From IMG/VR virus record IMGVR_UViG_3300048577_000559: a stretch of 64,000 bases of DNA. One strand, written 5' to 3'. The notes below the pieces were generated by a model. That model was not told the DNA's origin. It did no database searches and saw only the letters and a program-made list of their open reading frames with translations. This DNA comes from a virus. Shown piece by piece: positions 2,851 to 59,426 of this stretch (within the stretch, counting starts at the first letter, position 1; each line of letters starts with the position of its first letter). A program made the position numbers and the translations under genes.

Positions 2851-3056
2851 TGGCTCGCCGCCGCTGTCGCAACTGCCCGGACGAGCCGCGGCCAACACCG
2901 GAACCCAAGGTGACAAGGACGGTTGGCTCCCGTCGTCGCCGCGAACGAAACACGAGGTTGCACCGGGCCGAACGCCGAAGCAACCAGCGAGCCGCACTTG
3001 CCGCTGTCCCACGCGAACCTGAGATGCAACCTCAATTAAACCAATGATGCCGCTCC

Positions 3057-29327: not shown

Positions 29328-29948
29328 TCAGAACATCCGCAGCATGGCGTGGTAGACTTCGGCCTCGGCAATGCAGTCGGCCAGGGCGTCATGCGGATTG
29401 GTATTCGTGATGCCCAGCTTCTTGCACATCGCCCCCAGGCCGACGAAGGGGAACGGGACCGGCTCGCCCGCAAAAGCGGCCTTGTCGTTGAGCGAGATTG
29501 CGTAGAGCATCCCGTCGCGGGCGTGGCTGTGAAACAAGAGGTCCATCTCCTCCACGCCCAGCCACGCCTTGAGGAATGACGACTCGAAGGCCCAGTTGTG
29601 GGCCAGCGGCACGAGGCACTTCTTGAAGGGCAGCTTCAAGTTCAAGAACCAGTCATGGAGCCAATCGGCCACCTGCTCGGCCTCGGGGGCGTGGAGCAAG
29701 AGTTCCGTCATGGGAATCTTGTGCTTGTGCTTCGCGCCGAGCGACTCCCGCTCCGGGTGTTTTGGCTTGACGCGGGTGTAGAACGGCCGCACGCTGGCAA
29801 GGGGCCTGAAGTCCGAGTCCAGCGGCACCACGGCGATCTGGATGATTTCGTGATAGCCGGGCCGCGTGCCGGTGGTCTCCAGGTCTACAGCCGCCATGAG
29901 ACAGCCGTTGAGGTGGACCAGGCCGGGATAGACGATGGAATCAGCCAC
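29328..29948 (-). CDS. DnaQ-like 3'-5' exonuclease (DEDDh).
   Basis: Motifs VDLETTG (Exo I), HNWAFE (Exo II) and HDALADC (Exo III). GTG start preceded by GGGGAGGAAG. Confidence 0.7.
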   Translation of the reverse strand: MADSIVYPGLVHLNGCLMAAVDLETTGTRPGYHEIIQIAVVPLDSDFRPLASVRPFYTRVKPKHPERESLGAKHKHKIPMTELLLHAPEAEQVADWLHDWFLNLKLPFKKCLVPLAHNWAFESSFLKAWLGVEEMDLLFHSHARDGMLYAISLNDKAAFAGEPVPFPFVGLGAMCKKLGITNTNPHDALADCIAEAEVYHAMLRMF

Positions 29949-30378
29949 GGCGGGTCTTCCTCCCCTTCTTGGCAGGCTTGCGGGGTGACTGGCGGGGCGA
30001 CTTGCGGACGACGGGCTGGTAGCACGGCATGTCGTTCAATTCCGCCGGGAGCAGCCCGCGCTCGATCATCTCCTCGTAATGGATCAAGGCCATCGAGTTG
30101 AACATGATCGCGGCAAGATGATCCTCGTCTCGCTTGCCCTGCTGGTACTTCATTACGTGCCGCTTGAGCGAGGCCACGCAACGCGAGAACGGCATCCCCT
30201 TTTCCCAGTTCCGCTCGGCGTACTTGGCCGCGCCCATGCGGAGCCAGTGGCCCTGCCGCTCTTCGGCGAACGGGGAGATCAGGTCGGGCCGGGGCTTGTC
30301 GTCCGCCGTGTCGCGGATCGCCATACCTTTGCCGAAGGATTGCCGTTTGCCGCTGTCGGTCATGCCGTACTTGCTCAT
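29941..30378 (-). CDS. Phage protein with a putative dATP/dGTP-diphosphohydrolase-like domain.
   Basis: RMGAAKYAERNWEKG..SLKRHVMKY..EDHLAAIMFNSMALIHYEE. Recalled as a phage nucleotide-pyrophosphohydrolase-associated domain, with low certainty. RBS GGAGAAG. Confidence 0.35.
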   Translation of the reverse strand: MSKYGMTDSGKRQSFGKGMAIRDTADDKPRPDLISPFAEERQGHWLRMGAAKYAERNWEKGMPFSRCVASLKRHVMKYQQGKRDEDHLAAIMFNSMALIHYEEMIERGLLPAELNDMPCYQPVVRKSPRQSPRKPAKKGRKTRRG

Positions 30379-33304: not shown

Positions 33305-33393
33305 TAGACACCTATACAAGACTGCCAAAAGCTCGCAGTTTCCCAGAAATGTTGGGAAAAAACGGGACTTTGGCAGTCTTGTATAGGTGTCTA
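33305..33393. promoter_or_regulatory. 25-bp perfect inverted repeat (TAGACACCTATACAAGACTGCCAAA ... TTTGGCAGTCTTGTATAGGTGTCTA) in a divergent intergenic region.
   Basis: Arms at 33305-33329 and 33369-33393 separated by about 39 bp, between the divergent primase-helicase and ParB-like genes. Confidence 0.55.
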
Positions 33394-33413
33394 CGTATGA
33401 CGCGGATGCACCG

Positions 33414-35922: not shown

Positions 35923-37617
35923 ATGCAGCCCTTCTTCGAGCAGAACAACCTGAGCCTGTATTGCGGCAACTGCCTCGACGTGCTCGCCACGCTCCCCGAG
36001 GCGTCCGTGGATTACGTCGTGACAGACCCACCCTACCTTCTCAACTTTATGGAGAAGGATTGGGACGCTGCTGGCGGCGACATCCCAACAAGCGAGTTGG
36101 TATTTCGGTCCTGGTTCGCCGGTTTGGTTGCCGGGGAGGCGTGCTTCCGAATCCACCGTGAAAAGGACGGAACCTACTACGCTTGTGAGTTCAACATCAA
36201 GATGCGTGCCGATGAAGGCCCGCTGCTGCGGGCGTTAGCTCGGCGCATCGAAGCAGGGAATGTGCAGGACATTCCGGCTGAGTCGCGCGCTGTGAATAGT
36301 GGACCAGCCGTGAAGTGGGTTGTCCACTCCCGCGAGGATTGCTGGAAGATCGCCCGCTTGTTGGACGGCACGCCACTCTATGCGAAGAAGCAACGTGAAT
36401 ACGATCTGTGGCGCAGAGCCCTGAACGTCTGGACGACAACGCCGCGTGGCAACCGTTGGTGTGGTCCGCGCGACAATTCGGCAATGGAATCCTTGTGGGA
36501 GGAGATGAAGACGCTGCGGCCGTTCGATCAGGACTTGGCTGATGGCGACTTCGATCCGCTGCGGCAACCGGATTACCTCTTCCACAATCGTTGGGCGAAA
36601 GCCTGCCTGCGCGTTGTGAAACCCGGCGGCCTCCTGCTGGCGTTTGGCGGTACACGCACCTATCACCGGCTGACTTGCGCAATCGAGGACGCCGGGTGGG
36701 AGATTCGGGACGCGCTGATGTGGCTCTATGGGCAGGGGATGCCCAAGTGCGGCGACATCGGCAAACTGATCGACAAGTCGAAAGGCGCGAAGCGCGAAAT
36801 CATCGGCGACAAGTTGGATCGTCCCGGCTACCACTTGCACGAAGGCAAGGGAAACGGGTGCTACGGCGGCGGCAACGGACTTCATGCCCCTGGCACGGAT
36901 GCTCGGCTTCGCGCCGCGCAGATAACGGCACCGGCGACTCCCGAGGGCGCGAAGTGGACCGGCTGGGCGATGGCGTTGAAGCCGGCCTGGGAGCCAATCG
37001 TCCTGGCGATGAAGCCGCTGGACGGCACGATTGCCCACAACGCCCTGACCTGGGGCGTGGCCGGCATGAACATTCAGGCTTCCCGCATCGGCAACGAGAG
37101 CACGATACGCACTCGCGGGGACAGCTTGACGGACGCCGGCTGGGCCAGCACGAACCGCTCGCCTCTGGGCGGGTCGGAATGCGGGCGATGGCCGGCGAAC
37201 TTACTGCTGGACGAGGAAGCGGCTGTTCAACTGGACACTCAAGCGGGCACGCTTACGAGCGGCACCAACTGCGTCCGCACGAAATCCGGCGACGGCTACC
37301 ACGGCCGTCTCGGTAAGGCGGGCGATGTGCAGATCAGCTACGGCGACTCCGGCGGAGCGAGCCGGTTTTTCTACTGTGCTAAAGCGACACGCACGGAGCG
37401 CGGGCCGGGCAACGACCATCCGACCGTTAAGCCCCTGGCCCTCATGGAGTACCTGTTGACGCTGCTCTCGACCCCGGATGGCGGCGTGATTCTGGACCCC
37501 TTCGCCGGCAGCGGCACCACGCTCTTGGCCGCCAAAAGCCTTGGCCGCCGTTGCATCGGCGTCGAGTTGACCGCACACAACTGCGAGATCGCCCGAGGGA
37601 GATTGCATGTCGCTTGA
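35923..37617 (+). CDS. DNA methyltransferase (N6A/N4C, beta class) with an embedded LAGLIDADG-like domain.
   Basis: Motif IV DPPY near the N-terminus, RVVKPGG downstream, and motif I DPFAGSGTT at the C-terminus. An insertion of about 180 aa contains WFAGLVAGEACF...GPLLRALARRIEAGNV...WKIARLLDGTPLYAKKQREYDLWRRAL, matching the LAGLIDADG homing-endonuclease pattern. Confidence 0.65.
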   Translation: MQPFFEQNNLSLYCGNCLDVLATLPEASVDYVVTDPPYLLNFMEKDWDAAGGDIPTSELVFRSWFAGLVAGEACFRIHREKDGTYYACEFNIKMRADEGPLLRALARRIEAGNVQDIPAESRAVNSGPAVKWVVHSREDCWKIARLLDGTPLYAKKQREYDLWRRALNVWTTTPRGNRWCGPRDNSAMESLWEEMKTLRPFDQDLADGDFDPLRQPDYLFHNRWAKACLRVVKPGGLLLAFGGTRTYHRLTCAIEDAGWEIRDALMWLYGQGMPKCGDIGKLIDKSKGAKREIIGDKLDRPGYHLHEGKGNGCYGGGNGLHAPGTDARLRAAQITAPATPEGAKWTGWAMALKPAWEPIVLAMKPLDGTIAHNALTWGVAGMNIQASRIGNESTIRTRGDSLTDAGWASTNRSPLGGSECGRWPANLLLDEEAAVQLDTQAGTLTSGTNCVRTKSGDGYHGRLGKAGDVQISYGDSGGASRFFYCAKATRTERGPGNDHPTVKPLALMEYLLTLLSTPDGGVILDPFAGSGTTLLAAKSLGRRCIGVELTAHNCEIARGRLHVA

Positions 37618-43950: not shown

Positions 43951-44023
43951 TGTGGCGTAGTTCAGTTGGCAGAGCGGGTGCCTGTTGAGCACCGGGTCGC
44001 TGGTTCGAGTCCAGCCGCTACAG
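43951..44023 (+). tRNA. tRNA-Asn (anticodon GTT).
   Basis: Manual cloverleaf: acceptor TGTGGCG/CGCTACA, D-stem GTTC/GAGC, anticodon stem GGTGC/GCACC with loop CTGTTGA, T-arm GCTGG-TTCGAGT-CCAGC, discriminator G. Confidence 0.75.
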
Positions 44024-44044
44024 CCTCAATCTTGGAGACAGCCA

Positions 44045-44845
44045 ATGCCTATCTTCTGTGTGAGTGACCTGCATCTGTGCGACCGAGGCTACCGCGACAA
44101 CTTCGCCGTGGAAGGCCGCGAGGCCCGCTTCCACAGGTTCCTGGACTACGTGGAGGCCGAAGGCGGCCTACTGTATGTCCTGGGCGACCTGTTCGATTGG
44201 TGGCAAGTGAACCTGAGTCGGTCGATTCGTGCCTATCAAGACCTGCTGGCACGCTTGGCTCACCTCGGATCGCTGGGGGCCTTGTGGGTGGTCGGCAACC
44301 ACGATAACGCTTTGACCGATTTCGTCGGCAGCAACATCAAATTGCAGGGCCTCACTTTGCCCGCAATGTCCAGGGCCTTCGAGGCGACCATCGGCGGCCG
44401 GCAGTTCGCCTTTCTCCACGGCCACGAGTCCGACCCGTATTGCCGCGACGCCAACCCTGGCACCGGCGAGATTACGGCAATCATTTCCGGGCTGCTGGAA
44501 GACCGCAACCGTGGGCCGTTTTCGACGAATCATCATGCCGTGGAAGACCAGTTCGTCGGCACGTTGGAAGGGGCCTTGATCCTCTGGCGGAAGTTGACCC
44601 TCCAGCACGGCCGCATGGATGAAATGCTCGACGGCGTGGAAGCGTATCGCAAGGAGGCCGGGGCCGACGTGGTGGTCTACGGTCACACGCACGAGCCGGG
44701 CTGCATCGGCGACTACCACTTCAACACCGGCACCTGGGCAAGGACGAACGATACCTTCGTGCGGATCAACGACGACGGCGATGCAGCCGTCTGGGAGTGG
44801 CGGCACGATAACCGGCCTGTGTTGTTCTCCCGTGTATTGCGATGA
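44045..44845 (+). CDS. Calcineurin-like metallophosphoesterase.
   Basis: Motifs VSDLHL, GDLFD, GNHD, GHTH. Confidence 0.7.
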   Translation: MPIFCVSDLHLCDRGYRDNFAVEGREARFHRFLDYVEAEGGLLYVLGDLFDWWQVNLSRSIRAYQDLLARLAHLGSLGALWVVGNHDNALTDFVGSNIKLQGLTLPAMSRAFEATIGGRQFAFLHGHESDPYCRDANPGTGEITAIISGLLEDRNRGPFSTNHHAVEDQFVGTLEGALILWRKLTLQHGRMDEMLDGVEAYRKEAGADVVVYGHTHEPGCIGDYHFNTGTWARTNDTFVRINDDGDAAVWEWRHDNRPVLFSRVLR

Positions 44846-45666
44846 AGCCGCTGGAACAGTACCAGGCGTATCCCGTCCCGGCGGCGACCATCTACTGTGA
44901 TGCCACCTTCAACTGTCGTGGCGAGTTCACGCTGCAATCCGTCAAAGAACTGGCTGAGAGCATCGCCCAGGCAGGGCGGCTGATCTGCCCGGTCGCCGTG
45001 CAACCCTGGGCGCAAGAATCTGGCTGCCAATACCGCCTGATCGTTGGGCACCGCCGCTTCCGGGCCGTGACCGAGTTCCTGCGATGGATGGAGATACCGG
45101 CCTACGTCTGCGAGGGTTTGAGCGACCATGAAGCCCGGATGCTGAACCTGGTCGAGAACCTGCACCGCAAGAGCCTGAACATCCTGGAAGAGGCCCGTGC
45201 GATTCAGAACCTTTATCCCAACGGTGCGAGCGTGCGGGAGGCGGCCCGCGAGCTAAAGCGGGACACGCGATGGGTCTGGGTCCGCGTGCGGCTGTTGCGG
45301 ATGCCCGAGGCCATTCAGCAGAAGGCCGCCGCTGGCCTGCTCTCGCAGTGGAACCTGGACACGCTGGCTGGCATCGAGTCACTCGACGAGCAGATCGCGG
45401 CTGCCGACAAGATCGCGGAAGCACGGCAGCGCGGCAAGGGAAAGTTCCTGCCGGGTCTTGCCAGGACGTATAAACGCCGCCGAAGTGTCCGTCCGCGCGA
45501 AGAGATCAACCGCATGATCGAACGGATGTTGGCCGTTGGTATCAACGGCTTGCCGCCCCGCGTGGCCGCGTGGTGCGCGGGTCAGGTCTCCGACGAGGTA
45601 TTGCTGAAAGAAATCGAGGCGGCGACTCCAGAAAGCACGACAAATCCCGATCTCCCAGCGGAGTGA
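44842..45666 (+). CDS. ParB-like nuclease domain protein.
   Basis: LIVGHRRFRA (ParB box II GxRR) and a helix-rich C-terminus. Confidence 0.6.
   Translation: MKPLEQYQAYPVPAATIYCDATFNCRGEFTLQSVKELAESIAQAGRLICPVAVQPWAQESGCQYRLIVGHRRFRAVTEFLRWMEIPAYVCEGLSDHEARMLNLVENLHRKSLNILEEARAIQNLYPNGASVREAARELKRDTRWVWVRVRLLRMPEAIQQKAAAGLLSQWNLDTLAGIESLDEQIAAADKIAEARQRGKGKFLPGLARTYKRRRSVRPREEINRMIERMLAVGINGLPPRVAAWCAGQVSDEVLLKEIEAATPESTTNPDLPAE
45626..45663 (+). promoter_or_regulatory. Bipartite motif copy B: CTCCAGA-N16-GATCTCCCAGCGGAG.
   Basis: Exact half-sites with a 16-nt spacer. Located within the 3' end of the ParB-like gene, 9 nt before the 45673 ATG. Confidence 0.45.
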
Positions 45667-46032: not shown

Positions 46033-48528
46033 ATGAGCAAGCATCCGCCGAAACTCTACCTCGATACGGAGACATGCGGGCTGCACAGCATGATGGTGCT
46101 GTTGCAGTACGCCGTGGAAGACGGCCTCATTGTCCTGTACGAGGTTTGGCGGCGGCCCGTCCGCGAGACGCTGGCGCTGATCGAGTGGATATGCCAGCAT
46201 ACGGTTGTGGGCTTCAATCTGTCCTTCGACTGGTTCCACGTCTGCAAAATCTACACCGTCTTCCGCCTATGCGACCCGGACTGGATACCCGAAGAGCACA
46301 TCCACGAGATCGCCATGTTGGAGCCGCAGGGGCAGGACGGCCCGTGCATCAAGCCGGCGGCGGTCCTGGACCTGATGCTCCACAGCCGCAAAGGCCCTTA
46401 CCAGTCGCTAATGGCCCGCGAGGATGTCAGGATCAAGCGGGTTCCCACGGCCCTCGCCTACGCCCTGGCCCGCGAGCTAGAGGCCCGTGTCCAGTTCGAC
46501 AACATCTACTTCGCCAAGTCGGCCGACCCGGAAGCGCCCAAGTGGCAGGTCTTCGACCGGCACGATTCTTTCGGCGATCTGGATACCGAGTTCAAGGATG
46601 TCGTCTTGAAGTTCAACCCGGCTGGCGGCCTCAAGTTCCTCGCCGAGCACGCCCTGAAGCTCAAGCCCAAGTATCACTACAAGGACGTGGAGCCGCCCCC
46701 GGCGTGGCGGCCTTACGAGTTGGGCTATGCGCCCACGGCCCTGGCCGTGTCGAGTCCCGAAAAGGACTGGGCAATCGAGGCTGACGAAGACGGCGGCAAG
46801 AAAGTCACGAAGTACGCTTGGCCAGCCGTGATTCGCCAATTCATCCACCACTGGGCCACCCGTGAAGATGCCCGCGACTATGCCAACGACGACATCGTTT
46901 ATACGCGCGAGTTGGACAAACACTTCGGCTGCCCGGAGCCGGGTGACAACGACTCCACCTTGACCTGCATGGTGGCGGCCGTCCGCTGGCACGGTTTTAC
47001 AATCAACCGCGAAGGGATCGAAGCCCTGAAGGCGAAGGCCGAGGCGGCAGTGGCGGCCAGCCCGGTGAACATTAACAAGCCGAGCGAGGTCCGCGCCTAC
47101 GTCATGGCCGCGATGGACGGCACCGAGCACCTGATTCTCGACACCTCCACGAAGAAGGCCAACCTCGAAGCGATCAGCAGGTGGGGCATCGGCCAAATGT
47201 GCCCGGCGTGCAAGGGCAAGGGCCACCTGGACAAGGAAACGGACATTTGCCCGCAGTGTAACGGTGTCTGCTACGTCGGCGAGCCGGAGCCGTGCGGCAA
47301 GTGCCAGGGCGACGACCCGCACTGCGCACGCTGCGGCGGTACGGGCTTCCTGAAGGTCGGCCGGCACCCGGCCGGTGCCCGTGCCAAGGAGATCCTCGGC
47401 GTCAAGTTCGCCGCCAAGGAAATCGAGCTATACGACAAGTTGCTCTTGGCCGGCAAGTTCCATGCCTCGTTTGTCGTGATTGGTGCCCTCTCGTCCCGCA
47501 TGGCCGGGGCGGATGGCCTCAATGCCCAGGGGATCAAGCACACCAAGGAAGTCCGGCAGACGTTCCCCTTGGCCTGGAATGGGTATCTGCTCTGCGGCGG
47601 CGACTTCAGTTCCTTCGAGGTGACAATCGCTGACGCTGTGTGCGACGACGAGGCGCTGCGCGCCGAGTTGATTGCTGGCCGGAAGATTCACGCCCTGTTC
47701 GGCATGGCGATCTTCCCCGGCACGACCTACGAAGAGGTCAAGTCGAGCGACGGCAGCACGACCAACGATATGTACACGAAGGGCAAGCAAGGCTTCTTCG
47801 GTACGATGCTTTATGGCGGCGACCATAGCACGCTGGTCAACCGTCTGGGCATCAGCGAAGAAGTCGCCAAGCACGCCATCGAGAGCTTCGGCAGCCGCTT
47901 CGTGGGCGTCAAGAAGTGGCGGAAGCGGGTCGCCGATTCGTTCTGCTCCATGACCCAGCCGGGCGGCATCGGCACCAAGGTCGTTTGGAAAGACCCGGCC
48001 GATTACGCCGAGACGATGCTGGGGTTCCGTCGCTACTTCACGCTCGAAAACCGCATTTCACGCGCGATCTTCGATCTGGCCCGCAACACGCCCAAGCACT
48101 GGAAGGACTGCAAGGTCAAGGTGGTCCGCCGTGACCGCGTGCAGACTGCCGGCGGCGCGGTCTCGTCGGCCCTCTACGGGGCGGCGTTCTCGATGCAGGC
48201 GGCCAACATGCGGGCGGCGGCGAACCATGAAATCCAGTCGCCTGGTGCCGAAATCACCAAGCACGTCCAGCGGCAGATTTGGGACTTGCAGCCGGTCGGT
48301 GTGAACGATTGGCACGTCGCCCCCATGAACATTCACGACGAGATCATGTGCGTCACCCGCCCGGACATGGTTCCAAGCGTCACCGAGGTTGTCCGCGAGT
48401 CCGTCGAGCACTTCCGTCCCTACGTGCCGTTGATCGGTATGGATTGGTGCGAGGGCATGAACAACTGGGCGGAAAAGAAATCGGGAGCCACGCAGGTCAA
48501 GATCAGAGCGCCGGAGATGATGAAGTAG
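46033..48528 (+). CDS. Family A DNA polymerase with 3'-5' exonuclease domain and a DnaJ-type zinc-finger insertion.
   Basis: Exo I YLDTETCGL. Pol motif A GGDFSSFE, motif B K..GFFGTMLYGG, motif C NIHDEIM. Inserted (CxxCxGxG)x4 module CPACKGKG, CPQCNGVC, CGKCQGDD, CARCGGTG at 47199-47345. Confidence 0.8.
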   Translation: MSKHPPKLYLDTETCGLHSMMVLLQYAVEDGLIVLYEVWRRPVRETLALIEWICQHTVVGFNLSFDWFHVCKIYTVFRLCDPDWIPEEHIHEIAMLEPQGQDGPCIKPAAVLDLMLHSRKGPYQSLMAREDVRIKRVPTALAYALARELEARVQFDNIYFAKSADPEAPKWQVFDRHDSFGDLDTEFKDVVLKFNPAGGLKFLAEHALKLKPKYHYKDVEPPPAWRPYELGYAPTALAVSSPEKDWAIEADEDGGKKVTKYAWPAVIRQFIHHWATREDARDYANDDIVYTRELDKHFGCPEPGDNDSTLTCMVAAVRWHGFTINREGIEALKAKAEAAVAASPVNINKPSEVRAYVMAAMDGTEHLILDTSTKKANLEAISRWGIGQMCPACKGKGHLDKETDICPQCNGVCYVGEPEPCGKCQGDDPHCARCGGTGFLKVGRHPAGARAKEILGVKFAAKEIELYDKLLLAGKFHASFVVIGALSSRMAGADGLNAQGIKHTKEVRQTFPLAWNGYLLCGGDFSSFEVTIADAVCDDEALRAELIAGRKIHALFGMAIFPGTTYEEVKSSDGSTTNDMYTKGKQGFFGTMLYGGDHSTLVNRLGISEEVAKHAIESFGSRFVGVKKWRKRVADSFCSMTQPGGIGTKVVWKDPADYAETMLGFRRYFTLENRISRAIFDLARNTPKHWKDCKVKVVRRDRVQTAGGAVSSALYGAAFSMQAANMRAAANHEIQSPGAEITKHVQRQIWDLQPVGVNDWHVAPMNIHDEIMCVTRPDMVPSVTEVVRESVEHFRPYVPLIGMDWCEGMNNWAEKKSGATQVKIRAPEMMK

Positions 48529-49477: not shown

Positions 49478-50153
49478 CCAGTACAACGAGAAGCTAGTTG
49501 CCGGTCTGCACCATGCGACCAACGACGAGACATGGACTGCTGAGAAGAACGCCGACTTGCATCCGCTCGTTGCGGCGGGCGACAAGGAAGCTCGTGAGAC
49601 CATGATTAACGGCAACATGCCGTTAGTGCTCTCGAAGGTGGAAGCCTTCATCCGTTCGTTCCCAAGTATCGCACATCTCCGCGATGATTTGGTCAGTGCT
49701 GGATGCGTCGGCCTGGTCAAAGCTGTCAACAAAATGGCTCGCGGCGAGGGGCCGCGCAACACCGATCCCGTTGCGCCAACTGATTTCATTGGCATGTGGA
49801 TCAATCGTGAACTTGGGGAATTGGTTGAGGCAGAACATACCATTCGATTGCCTCCTCGTTCCAAGTATCGCGCCCGTGCGAATGGACAAGAGCTAGAAGC
49901 GCCCGAGGTCTGCAACGTCATTCCCGAACGGTTCGCGGTTCCCTCCTGCGAAGAGGAACTGGAAATCCGCGATCTGATCGACTCGTGTTGCGTCTGTGAA
50001 GACGAGCGGACGTTTGTTGCCATGCGGGAAGCGGGCTACACCCTCGTCGAGATTGGGGCCGCCATTGGCAAATCGCGCATGGCCACACAACGCATGGCCA
50101 AGCAGATTGACGCCCGCGTGCAGCGCAAACTGGAGGCCCTGCGCAACGCATGA
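49470..50153 (+). CDS. Sigma-70-family sigma factor (phage-encoded, ECF-like size).
   Basis: A region-2-like segment, and a region-4 HTH YTLVEIGAAIGKSRMATQRMAKQI near the C-terminus. GTG start, 227 aa. Confidence 0.5.
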   Translation: MSNQYNEKLVAGLHHATNDETWTAEKNADLHPLVAAGDKEARETMINGNMPLVLSKVEAFIRSFPSIAHLRDDLVSAGCVGLVKAVNKMARGEGPRNTDPVAPTDFIGMWINRELGELVEAEHTIRLPPRSKYRARANGQELEAPEVCNVIPERFAVPSCEEELEIRDLIDSCCVCEDERTFVAMREAGYTLVEIGAAIGKSRMATQRMAKQIDARVQRKLEALRNA

Positions 50154-50758
50154 TCCGACGCATCTTCTTAGACCTGGACGACGTGTGCAATACGCTGGCA
50201 CCTTTCGTGCTGCACTCGGTCGGTTGCGGCATCGGTCCAAGCGACTACGCTCGCTACCCGCGTGAACACGGCTTCAACATCTCGGCCGCCGCCAACGCCA
50301 TGTTGGGTGAGCCGCGCTACACCCCGGCCACGCTCTGGGCGTCAATCCCGCGTTCCCTGTGGGTCAAGGTGCCCGAATCGGACTTCTTCGCTTGGCTGTT
50401 GGACACCTGCGCTCAAGCCGTTGGCCGCGAGAACGTGTGCATCGCCACCTCGCCCACGAAAGACCCCGATTGCCTGGCGGGAAAGCTGGAGTGGATTCAC
50501 GACCACTTTCCCGAGTGGATGCACCGGCAGTACGCCATCACGCCCCGGAAGCATCTTCTCGCTCGTCCTGACTCCCTGCTGATCGACGACTACAGCGAAA
50601 ACATCGAGCGGTTCGAGGCCCACGGCGGCTACGCCATCACCGTCCCAAGGCCCTGGAATGAACATTGGGCTTCAGACCCTCGCGGGTACTTGGAAGAAAA
50701 ACTCGCGGTGGCACTCCAGAAGTCACCCGGATTTACGATCTCCCAGCGGAGAGACTGA
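50150..50758 (+). CDS. 5'(3')-deoxyribonucleotidase-like HAD hydrolase (NT5C family).
   Basis: N-terminal DxD motif IFLDLDDV, as in NT5C and phage dNMP nucleotidases. Confidence 0.5.
   Translation: MIRRIFLDLDDVCNTLAPFVLHSVGCGIGPSDYARYPREHGFNISAAANAMLGEPRYTPATLWASIPRSLWVKVPESDFFAWLLDTCAQAVGRENVCIATSPTKDPDCLAGKLEWIHDHFPEWMHRQYAITPRKHLLARPDSLLIDDYSENIERFEAHGGYAITVPRPWNEHWASDPRGYLEEKLAVALQKSPGFTISQRRD
50714..50751 (+). promoter_or_regulatory. Bipartite motif copy C: CTCCAGA-N16-GATCTCCCAGCGGAG.
   Basis: Exact half-sites with a 16-nt spacer, within the 3' end of the NT5C-like gene and 31 nt before ATG 50783. Confidence 0.45.
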
Positions 50759-50782
50759 CAAATCTTTTGAGGTGACACGTAC

Positions 50783-50949
50783 ATGCACGTCGTCGAGTTC
50801 ATTCCGGCCGATTGGTTGGAGCGGGCCGCTTGCTGGCCCGGCCTGACGGTCTACAGCCGGCCGGTGGCAGTCGAGCGACGGGTCCGCACGCGGCGGACAG
50901 CCGACGTGGAATTGCTGCTCCGATCCCTGCTTTCGGTACAGGTGCAATG
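50783..50949 (+). CDS. Small ORF (55 aa) downstream of motif copy C, possibly a leader peptide.
   Basis: ATG 50783, MHVVEFIPADWLERAACWPGL. Not in the supplied track. Confidence 0.2.
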
Positions 50950-52092
50950 ATGGCGCGACGCGAGTTTCTGCAATTGGCCGATCACTACGACCCGCGCAAG
51001 CATAGCGTGGCGGGTTGGTTTGTATCGGAAAAGCTAGATGGCACTCGCTGCTTTTGGGACGGCGGACTGACCCGTGGCCTGCCCACTGAGGAGGTGCCCT
51101 GGGCCTCGATCATCGACCCCAAGACCGGCCAGAGGAAGGCCAAGATCAAGCCCGTAGCGACCGGCCTGTGGAGCCGCTACGGCAATCCAATCATGGCCCC
51201 CGACTGGTGGCTCAATCGGCTGCCGGCTTGCCCACTGGACGGCGAGTTGTGGGCTGGACGGGGCAAGTTCCAACTTTGCCGGAGCATCTGCGGCGGCGAC
51301 ACCCCGGACGAGCGATTCAGCCAGATCGTCTTCGCGGTGTACTCCACACCGCCGCTCGCCGCGATCTTTAGCACCGGCGAGATCAAGAACGCCAACATGG
51401 TCTGCAACGTCGATTACCTCACGATTGAAGCGTGGATCAGACAGCGCCTCAATTCCCGAGGCGAGCGATTCGAGGGCGTCCCTGTTCCCAAGCGCTGCCT
51501 GGGCGACCATTTCAAGTTCCTGACCGCCGGCCAGACATTCGGCAAGGAAGTGGCCGTGCTCAGCGAGGCCCTGGAGAACACGGATGCCTCGATTTGCTAC
51601 CTCCACCGGCAAACAAAGTTGATCGACATTCCGGCCGAGGCCAACGACCAGGTGGAATCCTACTTGCAACGGGTGCTCGACCAGGGCGGCGAGGGCGTTG
51701 TGATTCGCAGCCCCGACGCCATTTGGATGCCGAAGCGCCACCGCAGCATCCTCAAGTACAAACCGTTCCAGGACGCCGAGGCCCGTGTGGTTGGCTTCAC
51801 CAGCGGCCGTGAGACGAACAAGGGCAGCCGGCTCTTGGGCAAGATCGGTGCCCTGATCGTGGACTACTGCGGCAAGCGATTGGAGCTAGCGGGCCTGACC
51901 GACACCGAGCGGGAATTCGCTGATCCGATGGCCCGCGATTGGGCCACCAACAACCCTGGCATCGACACTCCCTACTGGGTTGAAGGCAAGCAATTCAAGA
52001 AGGGCCAGATGGTCACGTTCAAGTACCGCGAACTGACCGACGACGGCGTTCCCAAAGAGGCGCGCTACTGGCGGCGGAGGGATTCCGAGTGA
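50947..52092 (+). CDS. ATP-dependent DNA ligase.
   Basis: Adenylation motif I SEKLDGTRC (KxDG). The length of about 381 aa fits a minimal phage ligase with OB domain. Confidence 0.75.
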   Translation: MMARREFLQLADHYDPRKHSVAGWFVSEKLDGTRCFWDGGLTRGLPTEEVPWASIIDPKTGQRKAKIKPVATGLWSRYGNPIMAPDWWLNRLPACPLDGELWAGRGKFQLCRSICGGDTPDERFSQIVFAVYSTPPLAAIFSTGEIKNANMVCNVDYLTIEAWIRQRLNSRGERFEGVPVPKRCLGDHFKFLTAGQTFGKEVAVLSEALENTDASICYLHRQTKLIDIPAEANDQVESYLQRVLDQGGEGVVIRSPDAIWMPKRHRSILKYKPFQDAEARVVGFTSGRETNKGSRLLGKIGALIVDYCGKRLELAGLTDTEREFADPMARDWATNNPGIDTPYWVEGKQFKKGQMVTFKYRELTDDGVPKEARYWRRRDSE

Positions 52093-52189
52093 CTGCAATG
52101 CCCAAGATCGCCTATCGCCAGTACGGCGGCACACCGAAGTCCGATTCACCAATTTTTGAGCGATTGATCCGACCAATGAGGTTCGCACC

Positions 52190-53212
52190 GTGAGTCAAGC
52201 CGCAGAACTATCGCGTGTTCAAGCCAACATCGGCAGTCTCGTGGAAACGTTCGTGCGGGACCGCTGGCAAACTGCGCAGCCGCGTTTCTACATCCAGGAC
52301 TTGCACGACTACATCGCCGCCCGGACACAGATTGCCCCGGCCTCCCCGGATCGCATCCTCCGGCAGCTTCGGCTGGAAGGCAAGTTCGACTACAAGATCG
52401 TCAACCGCTCGGACTCCTGCTACGAGATCACGGCAGTCAATTCCGGCCCGAAAGGCAAGCCAGCGAAAGCCTCGGCACTCAAACGCAACCCGAAACAGGA
52501 AGGCACGCCGTTCTTCGACTGCATCCCGCAGATCGGGCCTTGCCCCATCGGCTGCAACCAGTGCTTCTACAACCGGCCGGGGGCCTACTACGTGCCCATC
52601 GACCGCCCACACGTCCCGACGCCCGAAGAAGTGGGCGACGGCATCGTGCGGATGAACTGCGGAAACGACAGCAACAACCAGCGCGACCTGGTGATCGAGA
52701 CCGCCAAGCGGTATCGGCGCTATTTCTTCAACACGTCGATCCTCCGCTTCGATTTTCCCGGCCCGGTCGTGCTGACGGCCAATCCCAAGGAGGAGCAAGA
52801 GGGCAGCTACGCCATGCCGAACCGGCACGGCGACGACTGGCACTCGCCGGACGCCAACCTGATGTTCGTGCGCCTTCGCACGTCGGCAACCAATCTGCGG
52901 CTGGTGGATCAGGCCGTGGCTGCCTGGACCGCCGCCCAGGTGCCGGTGGTGATTACCTTCATGGCCTACTACGACCATGAGCCGCAGGTGCCCGCCGACC
53001 TGCTCTTCAAGGGCGAGTGCTACCAGTGGCGTGTGCGGCACATCAATTCCTACTGGTGTCCGACCAAGGAGTTCATGCGCTGGGTCATGTACCGTTACGC
53101 CGGCAATCGGCTGGTGAGCATGTGCAGCAGCATCAACTCGGCCTACTGCCGGGACTGCCGCAACTGCGAGAGCCACTATCTGCAAACCATCAAACGCTTG
53201 AAGGGTGAATAA
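52190..53212 (+). CDS. Hypothetical protein with CxxxCxxC motif (possible radical-SAM-like or Fe-S protein).
   Basis: GPCPIGCNQCFYN C-x3-C-x2-C motif. GTG start, 340 aa. Confidence 0.3.
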   Translation: MSQAAELSRVQANIGSLVETFVRDRWQTAQPRFYIQDLHDYIAARTQIAPASPDRILRQLRLEGKFDYKIVNRSDSCYEITAVNSGPKGKPAKASALKRNPKQEGTPFFDCIPQIGPCPIGCNQCFYNRPGAYYVPIDRPHVPTPEEVGDGIVRMNCGNDSNNQRDLVIETAKRYRRYFFNTSILRFDFPGPVVLTANPKEEQEGSYAMPNRHGDDWHSPDANLMFVRLRTSATNLRLVDQAVAAWTAAQVPVVITFMAYYDHEPQVPADLLFKGECYQWRVRHINSYWCPTKEFMRWVMYRYAGNRLVSMCSSINSAYCRDCRNCESHYLQTIKRLKGE

Positions 53213-53213
53213 C

Positions 53214-53360
53214 ATGGCCGGACTCGTGACCCTCGTGATTTCTCTCTTGGCCGGTGCTGTGGTCGTGACCATGACGTGCCCGCCGGTCGTGGCCGTTATC
53301 ACGGTCTGTTGCATTTGCTTCATCGGGGCGATCGTCGCCAAAGCAATGGGGAAAATCTGA
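53214..53360 (+). CDS. Small hydrophobic membrane protein (48 aa).
   Basis: MAGLVTLVISLLAGAVVVTMTCPPVVAVITVCCICFIGAIVA. Not in the supplied track. Confidence 0.25.
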   Translation: MAGLVTLVISLLAGAVVVTMTCPPVVAVITVCCICFIGAIVAKAMGKI

Positions 53361-53638
53361 TGGCAACCGCGCAGCAGAATCGGGACTTCGCCGACGAAAT
53401 GCTCGTCCAGTATCCGCTGGACCAGGCCATCGAATGGATCAAGGCCAATCTCTCCCCAGGCGACGTGTTCGACGAGGACCGGCTTACCGAGCACACACGC
53501 AACAACATCGAAATCGACGACGTGTACTCGGAACGGAACATTCTCGATTTCGTCCGGGGAACCTACAACCCGGCTGAGGTCTTCGGCACCGGCGAGCTAG
53601 AAGGCTGGGCCGAAGGCGAAGGCTACGTGAAGGAGTAG
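53360..53638 (+). CDS. Hypothetical acidic protein.
   Basis: 92-aa ORF. Confidence 0.3.
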   Translation: MATAQQNRDFADEMLVQYPLDQAIEWIKANLSPGDVFDEDRLTEHTRNNIEIDDVYSERNILDFVRGTYNPAEVFGTGELEGWAEGEGYVKE

Positions 53639-53684
53639 CCAGTCACTTTGCTATCAACCATCAACTGTTTCGCACTGCGCGCCG

Positions 53685-54188
53685 ATGAAACTGCGACTTC
53701 GCCACTGGGTAAGGCTGACGCTGAGGGTGGCTCTCTACTCGCTCATCGTGCAACTCAGCATCCCGATCATTGGCGGCATGTACTACAGCATGACCGGCGA
53801 CCACCGCGGCGAGCAGAGGTATCTCGACCGCTCCGTCGCCCACCTGAAACGGATGCGGGCCTTCTGCGACGACCCCGATCTGCAAAGCGTCTTGGATTAC
53901 ACGATTCGGCGCTACCACAAGGTCGGCGCGTGGGACGTGATGTTCATGCCGCTGACCGGGCCAGTGATTAACCCCGGTGGCGAGGCGGGCAAGTCCATTG
54001 GCTGCAACTGCCCCTGGTGTCCGGGCGTGACGCTCGACACCTGCCTCTTGATCGACTTCGCGCCCGAGGAAACCGCCATCGTGCTGGCGCACGAGGCCCT
54101 GCACGACTACTGGCCCTTCTTCGGCCACGACCATATCAACGCCCGCGAAAAGAGACTCCAAGAGCTAAGTGATGCCGTCCGCCGGTAA
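53685..54188 (+). CDS. Putative zinc metallopeptidase-like protein (HExxH).
   Basis: HEALHD motif and N-terminal hydrophobic segment. Confidence 0.35.
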   Translation: MKLRLRHWVRLTLRVALYSLIVQLSIPIIGGMYYSMTGDHRGEQRYLDRSVAHLKRMRAFCDDPDLQSVLDYTIRRYHKVGAWDVMFMPLTGPVINPGGEAGKSIGCNCPWCPGVTLDTCLLIDFAPEETAIVLAHEALHDYWPFFGHDHINAREKRLQELSDAVRR

Positions 54189-54696
54189 GTACCGCACGAT
54201 CATCGCCGATCCGCCGTGGACCCCGACGCTCAACGCGGGGCACCCGTCCTTCAAGGCGGGGCCGCAGCGGCAGTACCGGACCATGAGCGTGCGGGACATT
54301 TGCAGCCTGAAGGTGCCGGCCGCCAAGCAAGCCCACTTGTGGCTGTGGGTGGTGAACCAGCACGTCGATTGGGGCTACGAGGTGGCGCGGGCCTGGGGCT
54401 TCGAGCCGTGGAACGTGCTCACTTGGGCCAAGCCTGGCCTGGGCGTGGGCCGCTTCCAGTGCAATAGCGAGCACGTCCTGGTCTGCCGCAAGGGGCCACG
54501 CCACGGCAACCCCTTCGGCCCGACCGGCGGAACGTGGTTCGCATGGCCGCGAGGCCGTCACAGCGAGAAGCCCGAGGAGTTCTACCGGCTCGTGGAGTCG
54601 GCGTCTCCCGGCCCTTACCTGGAAATGTTCGCCCGCACCCGCCGATCTGGCTGGGACGCCTTCGGCAACGAAGTGGAAGGTTCGATCTGCTTATGA
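54169..54696 (+). CDS. MT-A70-family N6-adenine DNA methyltransferase.
   Basis: DPPW catalytic motif (IIADPPWTP) and MT-A70-like length. Confidence 0.7.
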   Translation: MMPSAGKYRTIIADPPWTPTLNAGHPSFKAGPQRQYRTMSVRDICSLKVPAAKQAHLWLWVVNQHVDWGYEVARAWGFEPWNVLTWAKPGLGVGRFQCNSEHVLVCRKGPRHGNPFGPTGGTWFAWPRGRHSEKPEEFYRLVESASPGPYLEMFARTRRSGWDAFGNEVEGSICL

Positions 54697-55340
54697 GCTA
54701 CACCCGCGAACAGATTGCCGCTGCCCTGGACTTGGCCGTCTTGAAGCCGACCGCCACGGCCGCCGACGTGCGCGCCGCTTGTGCCCTGGCCGTCGCCCGG
54801 CAGATCAAGTCGGTCTGCGTTGCCCCAGTCTGGGTGCCGATGGCGAGCGACTTGTACGGCAACGTGTGCGCCATCATTGCCTTTCCCCACGGAAACACGC
54901 TGCCCGAGGCCAAGTACGCCGAGGCCCTAGCGGCAATGGACTGTGGGGCGAAGGAACTTGACGTGGCGGTCAACTACGGCCGGTTTCTCGACAGCGGCCA
55001 CCACGACGCCTTCTGGGACATCGCCGCAATCGTCAAGGCGGCCCACCCACGCGGCGTGCTCGTCAAGGCGATTCTGGAAACCTGCTATTACACGCCGGAC
55101 CAAATCCGCGAAGCCTGCCGCCTGTGTGTCAAGAGTGGTGTGGACTTCGTGAAGACATCGACCGGCTTCGGACCCGGCGGGGCCACGCCCGAAGCCGTCA
55201 AGACCATGTTGGAAGCCGTCAATGGCGAGGCCCAAGTGAAGGCCAGCGGCGGCATCAAGACCTACTCCGACGCCGCCCGCTACCTGGACCTGGGCTGCAC
55301 TCGCCTCGGCTCGTCCCGCTACTTGGAGCTGCTGCCGTGA
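54693..55340 (+). CDS. deoC: Deoxyribose-phosphate aldolase.
   Basis: DLAVLKPTAT, SVCVAP, Schiff-base Lys context DFVKTSTGF and VKASGGI, typical of DeoC. Confidence 0.75.
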   Translation: MSYTREQIAAALDLAVLKPTATAADVRAACALAVARQIKSVCVAPVWVPMASDLYGNVCAIIAFPHGNTLPEAKYAEALAAMDCGAKELDVAVNYGRFLDSGHHDAFWDIAAIVKAAHPRGVLVKAILETCYYTPDQIREACRLCVKSGVDFVKTSTGFGPGGATPEAVKTMLEAVNGEAQVKASGGIKTYSDAARYLDLGCTRLGSSRYLELLP

Positions 55341-55351
55341 AGAAGTCCAAG

Positions 55352-55951
55352 ATGAACCGACTGGCCTGGAACCGGGGCTACCTCTGCGGCGCAATGGACC
55401 GCGTGACCGATGGCGGCGTCGGCTGGCGTCAAGACCTGATCGAGAGCCTGAAGGACTTGAACATTCTCTGGCTCGACCCGACGCGCAAGCCAATCGACAT
55501 AGGCGTGGAAGACCTGGAGAACCGCGCCCTGCGCCACAAGGCAAAGCGGGCCGGCGACTTCGAGTTCGTCCGCAACCAGATGAAGCAGATTCGTCCCGTC
55601 GATCTGCGGATGGTGGACATCTGCGACTTCCTCGTGGTGAACCTCGATCTGCAAGTCCACGCCACGGGGACATACGAAGAACTGTTCTGGGCGAACCGGA
55701 TGAAGAAGCCGGTCCTGGTGCGCGTGGAGCAGGGAATCGAACACACCCCGGACTGGCTCTTCGGCACGTTGCCCTTCGAGATGATCTTCTCGACGTGGGA
55801 CGAAGTGAAGACCTATCTGCGGCACGTCGCCCACGATCCGGTGATCGACCGGCTCAACCGCTGGTACTTCTTCAACTGGATGGGCGAGAACTGCATCGAG
55901 TCAGCCAATCATGGCGTCGGCCGCAAGATCGTCAGGAGGGTGAAGAAGTGA
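55352..55951 (+). CDS. Nucleoside 2-deoxyribosyltransferase / dNMP N-glycosidase-like protein (NDT/DNPH1 family).
   Basis: N-terminal GYLCGAMD resembles the NDT-family YLAGP motif. About 200 aa. Confidence 0.45.
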   Translation: MNRLAWNRGYLCGAMDRVTDGGVGWRQDLIESLKDLNILWLDPTRKPIDIGVEDLENRALRHKAKRAGDFEFVRNQMKQIRPVDLRMVDICDFLVVNLDLQVHATGTYEELFWANRMKKPVLVRVEQGIEHTPDWLFGTLPFEMIFSTWDEVKTYLRHVAHDPVIDRLNRWYFFNWMGENCIESANHGVGRKIVRRVKK

Positions 55952-58435: not shown

Positions 58436-58686
58436 AGATTCTCGTCTACCACGGCAGACATGGCGACGACTATTTCCTCGTCGATACGCCCGAACGACTG
58501 CAAGCAGCCATGCGTCAGTTGTTCAAGCAACTGGACGACTGGCACTGCTACGACCGCGATGAAGAAGGCGTGATCGAGGCGCGAGCCGGCGACGCGCGTG
58601 CAATCCGTTGGCTGCTCGACCGCCATAACGGCTACGAGTACGAAGGCTGGAACATCATCGAGGCCATTGATCCATGCACACCCTGA
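58432..58686 (+). CDS. Hypothetical protein.
   Basis: 84-aa ORF starting MKILVYHGRHGDD. Confidence 0.3.
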   Translation: MKILVYHGRHGDDYFLVDTPERLQAAMRQLFKQLDDWHCYDRDEEGVIEARAGDARAIRWLLDRHNGYEYEGWNIIEAIDPCTP

Positions 58687-59426
58687 TTAACGCCGACTGT
58701 CTCGATTACCTCAACGGCAACCGCCAGACTTGGACCACGATCTTGGCGGACCCGCCGGACAACATCGGCCTGAGCTACCAGAGCTACAAGGACAGACTGC
58801 CCGACCACCAATACGTGGACCTGCTGGAGACCTGGTTGCACCTGTTTGTTCACAGGGCCAAGACCGTTTGGTTCAGCTTCAACGCGAAGTGGACCTTCGA
58901 GGTTGGCCGCATCGTCGCCGAGATCGTCCGGCGGACCAGCGGCTTGGAAGCCAAGCCCTGCGTCCAGACTTTCACCTTCGGGCAACATTGCCACCACGAC
59001 CTGGGCAACAACCACCGGCCGCTCTGGCGGCTGCGGTGGTGTGACGCCCCGCTGCGTCCCGATGCGATCCGCGTGCCGAGTTGGCGGCAGGAGAACGGCG
59101 ACAAGCGGGCTGACCCGCGCGGGCGGGTGCCCGGCGACGTGTTCGACTTCACTCGCGTCGTGGGCAACAGCAAGCAGCGCCGTCCGTGGCACCCGACGCA
59201 ACTCAACGAGGGGCTGGTCGAGCGGTGCGTGAAGTTCACCACGCCAGAAGGCGAGTCAGTCCTAGACCCCTTCGGCGGCACGGGCACGACGCTCCGCGTT
59301 TGCCGGCCGCTGGGCTACCCCTGCACCCTAATCGAGATCGACCGGGGCTACTGCGACAAGATCGTCGAAGAGCACGGCATGAAGCGGTCGGAGTACATCC
59401 ATCGCGCCTTGTGGGAGGTCGAATGA
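58674..59426 (+). CDS. DNA methyltransferase (beta class, variant motif IV DPPD).
   Basis: ILADPPDN near the N-terminus, and motif I DPFGGTGTT near the C-terminus. Confidence 0.6.
   Translation: MHTLINADCLDYLNGNRQTWTTILADPPDNIGLSYQSYKDRLPDHQYVDLLETWLHLFVHRAKTVWFSFNAKWTFEVGRIVAEIVRRTSGLEAKPCVQTFTFGQHCHHDLGNNHRPLWRLRWCDAPLRPDAIRVPSWRQENGDKRADPRGRVPGDVFDFTRVVGNSKQRRPWHPTQLNEGLVERCVKFTTPEGESVLDPFGGTGTTLRVCRPLGYPCTLIEIDRGYCDKIVEEHGMKRSEYIHRALWEVE

Follow-up and report, generated by a model that had tools for sequence, protein, structure and literature searches.

The window considered here is the whole stretch of 64,000 nucleotides analysed from the uncultivated phage IMGVR_UViG_3300048577_000559, whose host probably belongs to the Planctomycetes/Planctomycetota. 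Its plus strand encodes an NT5C-family HAD phosphatase, which is a candidate 5'-deoxyribonucleotidase (50150..50758, 202 aa; PF06941, phrog_2643), a winged-helix and radical-SAM-fold protein (52190..53212, 340 aa), an MT-A70 family DNA adenine methyltransferase (54169..54696, 175 aa; PF05063, phrog_359, PADLOC MTase_II), a deoxyribose-phosphate aldolase, DeoC/DERA (54693..55340, 215 aa; TIGR00126, PF01791), and an NDT/DNPH1-fold protein, a putative dNMP N-glycosidase (55352..55951, 199 aa, with an alternative GTG start at 55337). Two N4/N6 DNA methyltransferases are found on the same strand, one at 58674..59426 (250 aa; PF01555, 85 bits; PADLOC MTase_II) and the other, with an inserted LAGLIDADG endonuclease domain, at 35923..37617 (564 aa; PF01555, 104.6 bits; PF00961), and the minus strand encodes a DUF5664/MazZ-type domain protein (29941..30378, 145 aa; PF18909, 67 bits; phrog_801, 'dATP/dGTP pyrophosphohydrolase'). 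The gene calls of a preliminary description of this DNA all hold, and the NT5C-like protein, the MT-A70 enzyme, DeoC, the two other methyltransferases and the DUF5664 protein, there called a pyrophosphohydrolase, exceed curated thresholds. The NT5C-like protein scores 42.4 bits with PF06941 (threshold 24.8), over residues 93-174 only, and has HAD motif I (D8-x-D10-x-V12, DxDxV), and the MT-A70 enzyme scores 58.5 bits with PF05063 (threshold 23.9) and carries the DPPW catalytic motif within IIADPPWTP. The methyltransferases of the window resemble ordinary orphan enzymes of type II, and they alone matched PADLOC (MTase_II), with no match for the NDT-like, DeoC, NT5C, radical-SAM, HExxH or DUF5664 proteins. 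The recognisable nucleotide enzymes of the window are all degradative, and profile scans of its ORFs recognised no kinase, RNR, thymidylate synthase or deaminase.

The window is not a complete genome, since no head-to-tail repeat was found when sought as a sign of completeness and a close relative runs 8.4 kb beyond the window end. A DNA search of a 16-kb region against GenBank phages gave no match and hence no annotated relative, making annotation transfer impossible. The family A polymerase of the window is very divergent, no GenBank phage polymerase sharing more than 27% identity with it, the ORFs at 40042-41004 and 34415-35152 have no PDB sequence match, and a scan of 48.5-60.5 kb for sigma-70 promoters and terminators gave nothing above the shuffled background. 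The DeoC and NDT-like genes are placed in the replication operon, and not in an early or accessory region. A temperate lifestyle is suggested by relatives of the phage located inside Planctomycetota MAG contigs, the longest of which reaches 1.07 Mb.

Judged by its sequence, DeoC is a true DERA: it reaches 193 bits with the equivalog-level model TIGR00126 (cutoff 117) and 69 bits with PF01791, matches the PDB DERA 3ngj with an E of 2.8e-44, keeps the Schiff-base Lys motif KTSTG and KASGG, and has ELDVAVN, VKAILET, FVKTSTGF and VKASGGI, which cover the Schiff-base Lys and the relay Lys and Asp motifs, in alignment with 3ngj and 6d33. The catalytic Lys motifs are retained in 28 of 29 copies despite divergence to 44-90% identity. 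DeoC is otherwise almost absent from phages; it has no PHROG family, a search of 50,697 GenBank phage records matched nothing but two huge phages and host contigs carrying a wrong label, and the literature yielded neither a phage DeoC nor a combination of DeoC with an NDT.

Within the nucleoside deoxyribosyltransferase superfamily, the NDT-like protein is divergent. The earlier assignment to this group stands as regards the predicted structure, a flavodoxin-like alpha/beta fold common to NDT, DNPH1 and MilB, and the aligned catalytic triad, but the profile scores lie below the Pfam gathering thresholds (PF15891, 23.9 against 30; PF05014, 21.1 against 28.8), which a few members of its family of about 1,200 sequence clusters do exceed (P0133, 30.8; P0258, 31.2). 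A fold search was needed because the family profile found only noise among PDB sequences (BlsM, E 2.1). The top structural match, YtoQ, was of no help, being itself a protein without known function, and domain fusions within the family were uninformative as functional hints, consisting of HNH/AP2 homing endonucleases or regions with no match. Among the relatives of known activity, DNPH1/Rcl is a 2'-deoxynucleoside 5'-phosphate N-hydrolase and MilB and BlsM are CMP and hmCMP N-glycosidases; these are cellular enzymes without a paired aldolase gene, and their sequence similarity to the NDT-like protein is insignificant in the PDB search (E of about 2). In a statistically weak alignment (hhalign E 0.002, probability 13%), Y10 (at least 90% conserved) and the invariant D84 and E110 fall on Y13, D69 and E93 of Rcl, and A104, a small neutral residue (A, C, S or V among family members), falls on Rcl Ser87, the position of the 5'-OH-binding Asp of nucleoside transferases. 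In DNPH1/Rcl-type enzymes, a pocket for the 5'-phosphate is formed by small uncharged residues in the places of the 5'-OH-binding Asp and Asn of the transferases. The invariant D134 of a PDW motif lies roughly opposite Rcl Ser117 and NDT Asn123, by ungapped extension only, so that the second phosphate-pocket position may be Asp instead of the Ser of DNPH1 and MilB; if D134 faced the 5' pocket, nucleosides would be preferred to nucleotides. The family also has a specific insert at residues ~42-70 and a C-terminal PDW/RWxFF region.

The two genes form a conserved arrangement: among 32 related loci (NDT-like identity of at least 53%, GC of 39-64%), 29 have DeoC immediately upstream of the NDT-like gene in the same orientation, and the stop and start codons often overlap. 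DeoC is missing from L011, L023 and L029 and truncated in L002, and the pair is kept in L021 and L025, which have no other gene in common with the window. More distant genomes have two NDT-family paralogues after DeoC, with a NUDIX gene in the vicinity, and at the Glu-6 position the smaller paralogue carries Ser like Rcl and MilB. A single IMPDH/GMP-reductase match near a distant NDT-like gene was not traced, the candidate tested for it being a clamp loader. The only GenBank homologues, in the huge phages LR756511 (NDT-like) and LR756501 (DeoC), are unpaired and have tail-fibre and glycosyltransferase genes as neighbours. The module is patchily distributed and exchanged; divergent DeoC alleles occur beside near-identical NDT-like genes, and one NDT-like allele is fused to an HNH homing endonuclease. 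In the window, the stop codon of the MT-A70 gene overlaps the start of DeoC (ATGA), but the MT-A70 gene lies upstream of DeoC in some relatives only and adjoins the pair only in close ones. Similarly, the NT5C-like gene, a loose neighbour outside the conserved pair, occurs near it only in close relatives with the whole gene order in common. Thus, the functional unit is the co-translated pair of DeoC and NDT-like genes, and not the larger 6-kb stretch that had been proposed, a cluster with three methyltransferases among its genes.

Deoxyribose 5-phosphate (dR5P) is the sole known physiological substrate of DeoC and the exact product of DNPH1-type hydrolases, in the assay of which DeoC is the standard coupling enzyme (PMC12884076). 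Since DeoC accepts only dR5P, the pairing speaks for a dNMP N-glycosidase activity of the NDT-like protein, and from its conservation we infer that the substrate is a dNMP rather than a nucleoside. Most likely, the NDT-like protein would act as DNPH1, MilB and the phage enzyme DmtZ do: the conserved Glu would attack C1' of a 2'-deoxynucleoside 5'-monophosphate, the base would leave, and water would then free dR5P from the enzyme, converting dNMP into base and dR5P. DeoC would cleave dR5P into glyceraldehyde 3-phosphate and acetaldehyde, a step that would make dNMP removal irreversible, avoid a build-up of dR5P and return the carbon to host metabolism. The dNMPs could originate from dNTPs, through the DUF5664 pyrophosphohydrolase, or from nuclease digestion of DNA, and the NT5C-like phosphatase might offer a parallel exit from dNMP to nucleoside. 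The net result would be a phage-run shunt through which the infected cell loses all or part of its dNMPs. A temperate lifestyle would make bulk breakdown of host DNA unlikely, which counts against this reading, as do the profile scores below threshold, the weak alignment to Rcl, a possible place of D134 in the 5' pocket and the loci in which DeoC is missing or truncated. Nevertheless, we consider the chances to be slightly better than even that the pair, acting in this manner, constitutes a shunt which removes dNMPs and ends in ordinary metabolites, most likely for editing or cleaning the nucleotide pool or for starving a nucleotide-sensing defence. The earlier proposal that dNMPs lose their base and that their deoxyribose is then destroyed is backed by the synteny of DeoC with the NDT-like gene and by the precedent of DmtZ with DUF5664 (PMC12884076), although its premise that phages normally conserve dNTPs is not general, as the T5 enzyme Dmp destroys dNMPs (bioRxiv 10.1101/2024.12.20.629578). 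The proposed shunt has the final aldolase step in common with the bacterial deo regulon (DeoA/DeoD, DeoB, DeoC), which also serves deoxynucleoside and deoxynucleotide catabolism. However, the regulon leads from nucleoside through dR1P to dR5P by means of a phosphorylase and a mutase, neither of which was found among the window ORFs, whereas the phage pair is predicted to need one hydrolytic step from the nucleotide.

If the NDT-like protein were instead a true nucleoside 2'-deoxyribosyltransferase or a nucleoside hydrolase in a salvage route, NT5C would supply deoxynucleosides whose bases are swapped or removed, and the adjacency of DeoC would be unrelated or indirect. This seems highly improbable, as a transferase frees no sugar, a nucleoside hydrolase gives unphosphorylated deoxyribose, for which DeoC would need a kinase that is not present, and DeoC is linked throughout whereas NT5C is unlinked outside close relatives. 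Moreover, Ala, Cys, Ser or Val stands where NDT carries its 5'-OH-binding Asp, and NDTs of predicted unmodified phage genomes performed no transglycosylation with nucleosides (cited preprint). The hydrophobic residue at this 5' pocket position would also suit a cleavage of 5'-deoxyadenosine, the aldolase then removing the deoxy-sugar, in a disposal of radical-SAM by-products; a radical-SAM-fold protein is often encoded on the contigs of the pair and lies between the two genes in L022. This idea is barely credible, however, since DeoC is a DERA equivalog whose chemistry needs a 2-deoxy sugar 5-phosphate, 5-deoxyribose meeting neither requirement, and many loci have the pair but no radical-SAM gene within 8 kb (L020, L021, L024-L027).

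The closest precedent for the proposed dNMP removal is found in 2-aminoadenine phages, which have DmtZ together with DUF5664 (NAR 2026, PMC12884076). As in the window, DmtZ is a phage NDT-superfamily protein with a Tyr, Asp-or-Asn and Glu triad, encoded in the same genome as a DUF5664 dNTP pyrophosphohydrolase, and it hydrolyses dNMP to base and dR5P, as the window protein is predicted to do; the latter matches the protein of Gordonia phage Ghobes by Foldseek with an E of 8.6e-5. However, the two have no BLAST-level similarity (13% identity in the structural alignment), the window protein is longer (~180-200 aa in its family) and has the insert and C-terminal region described above, the window lacks PurZ0 and DutZ, and the pairing with DeoC has no counterpart in the DmtZ paper, where DeoC is mentioned as an assay reagent only. 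The DUF5664 protein of the window is a candidate supplier of dNMP, with release of PPi, from dNTP, and activity has been measured for a homologue (PMC12884076), but it has no positional link to the pair. Many viral contigs encode it along with the pair, but others encode it although the NDT-like search found nothing on them; its co-occurrence by contig names was uninformative as evidence of linkage, as DUF5664 is common throughout this phage group.

In PurZ0 phages, DmtZ and DutZ exclude adenine (PMC12884076), and the pair fed by DUF5664 could likewise be the exclusion arm of a base-substituted genome, in which one canonical dNMP is selectively destroyed and a non-canonical nucleotide, the product of enzymes that cannot yet be recognised, replaces it. 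DmtZ, as the nearest characterised phage enzyme, co-occurs with DUF5664 and has this role (PMC12884076), and the fold-level match to Ghobes, the divergence of the polymerase and several ORFs without assignment, including the radical-SAM enzyme that travels with the pair, are consistent with it. We nonetheless hold this reading to be improbable. No gene for PurZ or PurZ0 (PF00709 homologues with Ser for the catalytic Asp), DatZ, a thymidylate-synthase-like enzyme, TGT/DpdA or Que/deazaguanine synthesis was found among the window ORFs and the 8.4-kb extension of the relative L186 (92-98%), at least ~1.6 kb to the left of the window lying outside this search; neither Dut nor an HD-domain DatZ was found, and the dATP-removing candidate in the window is DUF5664, which is likewise found in phages whose genomes are canonical (PMC12884076). 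In addition, palindromes of 6 bp are almost completely purged, 25 palindromic hexamers expected 5-33 times each being absent, among them sites containing A/T and sites of G/C only, which suggests that the phage DNA is readable by restriction enzymes; a global replacement of bases should make such a purge needless, and the three orphan methyltransferases suggest ordinary methylation as protection. Thus, the modified DNA envisaged in the preliminary description has no positive evidence, as base-making genes were not found and palindromes with any of the four bases are avoided. It is decidedly improbable that the pair and DUF5664 are the exclusion half of a substitution whose synthesis half is encoded by genes still without assignment, such as the winged-helix radical-SAM gene, with a family A polymerase adapted to the new nucleotide; if true, the phage DNA would be non-canonical in a new way, and this in a lineage without a cultured member.

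The same chemistry could also have been selected to remove the precursor or signal of a nucleotide-based immunity. T5 Dmp removes dAMP and thereby blocks dITP signalling by Kongming, so that a phage dNMP-destroying enzyme has been experimentally shown to be an anti-defence factor (bioRxiv 10.1101/2024.12.20.629578). Moreover, the palindrome purge and the three methyltransferases are further anti-restriction traits of the window, and a patchy, exchanged module with divergent DeoC alleles and an HNH fusion is typical of arms-race genes. A role in counter-defence seems unlikely, though not negligibly so: Dmp co-occurs with phage dNMP kinases (bioRxiv 10.1101/2024.12.20.629578), none of which is recognisable in the window, the presumed Planctomycetota hosts have no known defence system that could be the target, the genes match no PADLOC or anti-defence family, and their place in the replication operon is not the early or accessory region. 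As in the proposed shunt, deoxynucleotides are deliberately destroyed by T5 Dmp and by the dTMPase/dTTPase and DatZ-type exclusion enzymes of base-substituted phages, Dmp acting in counter-defence as a 5'-deoxyribonucleotidase, the same general kind of enzyme as the NT5C-like protein of the window. However, they end at nucleoside or dNMP, and none is known to reach sugar cleavage.

The control of deoxynucleotide pools by phages is of current interest because of non-canonical genomes (Z, dU, deazaguanines) and nucleotide-based immunity (Kongming, dNTP depletion), and, to our knowledge, phage pool-editing enzymes all end at dNMP, nucleoside or free base. The phage's own DeoC is the coupling enzyme of the standard assay, so the dNMP shunt is cheap to test. 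If true, phages would for the first time be seen to encode a path leading from a DNA building block to central carbon metabolism, and NDT-fold dNMP hydrolases, recently discovered in Z-phages, would be used far more widely outside them. The base specificity of the NDT-like protein would then tell whether these uncultivated Planctomycetota phages use the pair to exclude a canonical base, to rid the pool of an unwanted nucleotide or to disarm a defence.

The DeoC gene (54693-55340, + strand) and the NDT-like gene that follows it (55352-55951, + strand) recur together across related loci. Relatives of the NDT-like protein are encoded at 33 loci from IMG/VR and at six from GTDB genomes. Of the 32 loci in which NDT-like identity to the window's protein is at least 53%, 29 have DeoC immediately upstream, in the same orientation, with gaps of -8 to +700 nt between the two genes and a GC content of 39-64% among loci; it is absent from all five loci with an identity of 37% or less. 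At two loci, L021 and L025, the pair is present and nothing else is common with the window. DeoC copies (44-90% identical) are far more diverged than NDT-like copies (53-99%), and the catalytic motifs are kept in 28 of the 29 DeoC copies. In the window, the stop codon of the MT-A70 methyltransferase gene (54169-54696, + strand) overlaps the DeoC start (ATGA), and an in-frame GTG (55337), where NDT-like homologues appear to start, overlaps the stop codon of DeoC. Distant genomes display the order DeoC, a second small NDT paralogue and the NDT-like gene. Like the nucleotide N-glycosidases Rcl and MilB, this paralogue (148-155 aa, motif SIGTVMEIAW; L123:1451-1897, L024:7544-7933 and L026:7513-7938), which is not present in the window, has a Ser six residues ahead of the catalytic Glu; one contig has a NUDIX gene just downstream.

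Some loci depart from this arrangement. The DeoC of L002 (7579-7989) aligns over residues 79-215 only, which suggests a truncated copy, and in L011 MT-A70 lies directly upstream of the NDT-like gene, without DeoC. Moreover, in L185, a relative otherwise 93-95% identical to the window, a divergent allele (2811-4127) stands in place of the NDT-like gene and continues in frame into a homing-endonuclease domain of the HNH (+AP2) type, and the same fusion is found in several representatives of the NDT-like family (P0132, P0136 and P0138).

Elsewhere, phages hardly ever carry DeoC. No PHROG family exists for it, and a tblastn search of 50,697 GenBank phage records returned 21 matches, consisting of mislabelled host contigs and two huge phages; in the latter, DeoC and NDT-like genes are not paired with each other.

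The preliminary description had regarded a 6-kb cluster as the unit, a view that was not borne out, since it is only in close relatives that the NT5C-like gene (50150-50758, + strand) and MT-A70 are found near the pair. These relatives keep the whole polymerase-to-methylase gene order, and the proximity of both genes to the pair is shared descent and not independent linkage. A 340-aa protein with no family match (52190-53212, + strand), composed of an N-terminal winged-helix domain and a radical-SAM-fold core, has an invariant CxxxCxxC motif and five further invariant Cys residues; its core family (about 240 aa) comprises 529 homologues, none of them named, and its gene often shares contigs with the pair and, in L022, separates DeoC from the NDT-like gene. 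A 167-aa HExxH-motif protein (LAHEALHD; 53685-54188, + strand), also with no family match, is conserved at many of the related loci, where its gene precedes MT-A70 or DeoC.

All the genes named in the preliminary description were found where it had placed them, and its assignments held. The NT5C-like HAD phosphatase (PF06941, 42 bits), MT-A70 (58 bits) and the two N4/N6 methyltransferases score above the Pfam thresholds; close to the N-terminus of one of the latter (35923-37617, + strand) there is an inserted homing-endonuclease domain of the LAGLIDADG type. DeoC matches the NCBIfam equivalog for deoxyribose-phosphate aldolase (DERA) at 193 bits (cutoff 117), and solved DERAs with an E-value of 2.8e-44, with intact Schiff-base and relay lysine motifs. 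The pyrophosphohydrolase-like protein (29941-30378, - strand) is a DUF5664 protein (67 bits), corresponding to the dATP/dGTP diphosphohydrolase N-terminal domain. The NDT-like assignment alone was uncertain, since both NDT Pfam models stay below threshold; it is backed by the alignment of catalytic residues and by structure-model matches. In a statistically weak profile alignment with rat Rcl, whose sequence was verified against PDB 2khz, Y10, D84 and E110 align to the catalytic Tyr13, Asp69 and Glu93. A104, which other family members replace by C, S or V, aligns to Ser87, a position at which nucleoside transferases have an Asp that binds the 5'-OH. Asp134, in a PDW motif, is invariant, lies near the position of the second phosphate-pocket serine of Rcl and might line the 5' pocket. 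Among predicted viral structures, the NDT-like model matches many phage "NDT" proteins, including a 161-aa protein of Gordonia phage Ghobes, of the size reported for DmtZ, the dNMP hydrolase of 2-aminoadenine phages, and also two proteins named for the DUF5664 domain.

Deoxyribose 5-phosphate is the physiological substrate of DERA and, among NDT-fold enzymes, only nucleotide hydrolases of the DNPH1/MilB/DmtZ type are known to release a pentose 5-phosphate. The pairing with DeoC, together with this substrate, therefore argues for the NDT-like protein being a dNMP N-glycosidase, and the pair would convert dNMPs into free base, glyceraldehyde-3-phosphate and acetaldehyde. DeoC has served as the coupling enzyme in assays of NDT-fold nucleotide hydrolases, and DUF5664 homologues hydrolyse dATP, dGTP and dUTP to dNMPs (PMC12884076). 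Because such homologues make dNMPs from dNTPs, the DUF5664 protein could supply the pair, while the NT5C-like enzyme might act as a parallel dNMP sink. All the recognisable nucleotide enzymes of the window are degradative in ORF profile scans. A route that would strip the base from dNMPs and destroy the deoxyribose, as suggested before, thus gains backing from the conserved gene pairing, and we consider dNMP breakdown by the pair, a mechanism shared by all the purposes discussed below, somewhat more likely than not.

The window (62% GC) is a phage-like genome segment with structural genes on the + strand up to about 28.4 kb (gpA-type terminase, P22-type coat and tape measure), a short block on the - strand (28.4-33.6 kb) and a long replication block on the + strand from 33.4 kb to its end. 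The replication block contains two ParB-like proteins (ParB_N + HTH_ParB; 33387-34343 and 44842-45666, + strand), a tRNA-Asn(GTT) (43951-44025, + strand) and an 831-aa family A DNA polymerase (46033-48528, + strand), whose CxxC/CxxCxGxG-rich insertion at about aa 390-450 resembles a DnaJ-type zinc finger. The window is not a complete genome, as a 92-98% identical relative continues 8.4 kb past its end; this stretch contains unknown ORFs, the gene of an HTH protein and that of a reverse transcriptase (RVT_1, 345 aa; L186:17347-18384, - strand). The last of these has neighbouring minus-strand ORFs without known function, and the region is possibly a diversity-generating retroelement. No cultured phage is related to the window: a DNA search with a 16-kb region of it matched no GenBank phage, and no polymerase of a GenBank phage shares more than 27% identity with its own.

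Syntenic regions encoding 80-92% identical NDT-like proteins occur in MAG contigs assigned to Planctomycetaceae, Planctomycetia and Thermoguttaceae, the GTDB contigs L035, L036 and L038 measuring 188 kb, 137 kb and 1.07 Mb. A protein with the same sequence as the window's DeoC (P0391) also has a record on a JGI contig of 417 kb. Since these syntenic regions sit in long Planctomycetota contigs, the host is probably a planctomycete and the phage probably temperate, possibly integrated in the host genome as a prophage; the window showed no integrase. A temperate lifestyle makes bulk recycling of host DNA less likely as the source of dNMPs.

Modified phage DNA, the other possibility raised in the preliminary description, now appears less plausible. 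Exclusion of one canonical base has its closest precedent in DmtZ, which removes dAMP in 2-aminoadenine phages (PMC12884076). PurZ, DatZ, Dut, thymidylate-synthase-like, TGT/DpdA and Que genes were detected neither in the window nor in the 8.4-kb extension of its 92-98% identical relative. Moreover, 6-bp palindromes are purged from the window (386 observed, 1152 expected), with 25 palindromic hexamers of expectation 5-33 wholly missing, such as GTCGAC (0/33), GGCGCC (0/30) and CTCGAG (0/28), and with CGGCCG, GCCGGC, CGCGCG, TGGCCA and GCGCGC as the main survivors, the first two of which, the EagI and NaeI sites, are abundant. All 2336 non-palindromic hexamers expected 10 or more times do occur, CTAG alone is avoided among 4-base palindromes, and related loci follow the same trend (6-bp observed/expected ratios of 0.25-0.5). 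A, C, G and T all occur in the purged sites. Most simply, the DNA would look ordinary to restriction enzymes, and the phage would escape them through its sequence and its three orphan methyltransferases; exclusion of a canonical base is quite improbable.

The putative dNMP breakdown by the pair might instead serve pool editing or cleaning, for example by removing dUMP, dIMP or methylated dNMPs. Counter-defence, in which the pair would remove the nucleotide precursor of an immune system, as T5 Dmp does against Kongming (bioRxiv 10.1101/2024.12.20.629578), seems unlikely. Phage NDT-fold dNMP hydrolases and DUF5664 pyrophosphohydrolases were already published in 2026 (PMC12884076), and no NDT-fold dNMP hydrolase coupled to a phage-encoded deoxyribose-phosphate aldolase was found in the searchable literature. 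The new part would be a putative hydrolase-aldolase module that is conserved across many uncultivated lineages outside Z-genomes.
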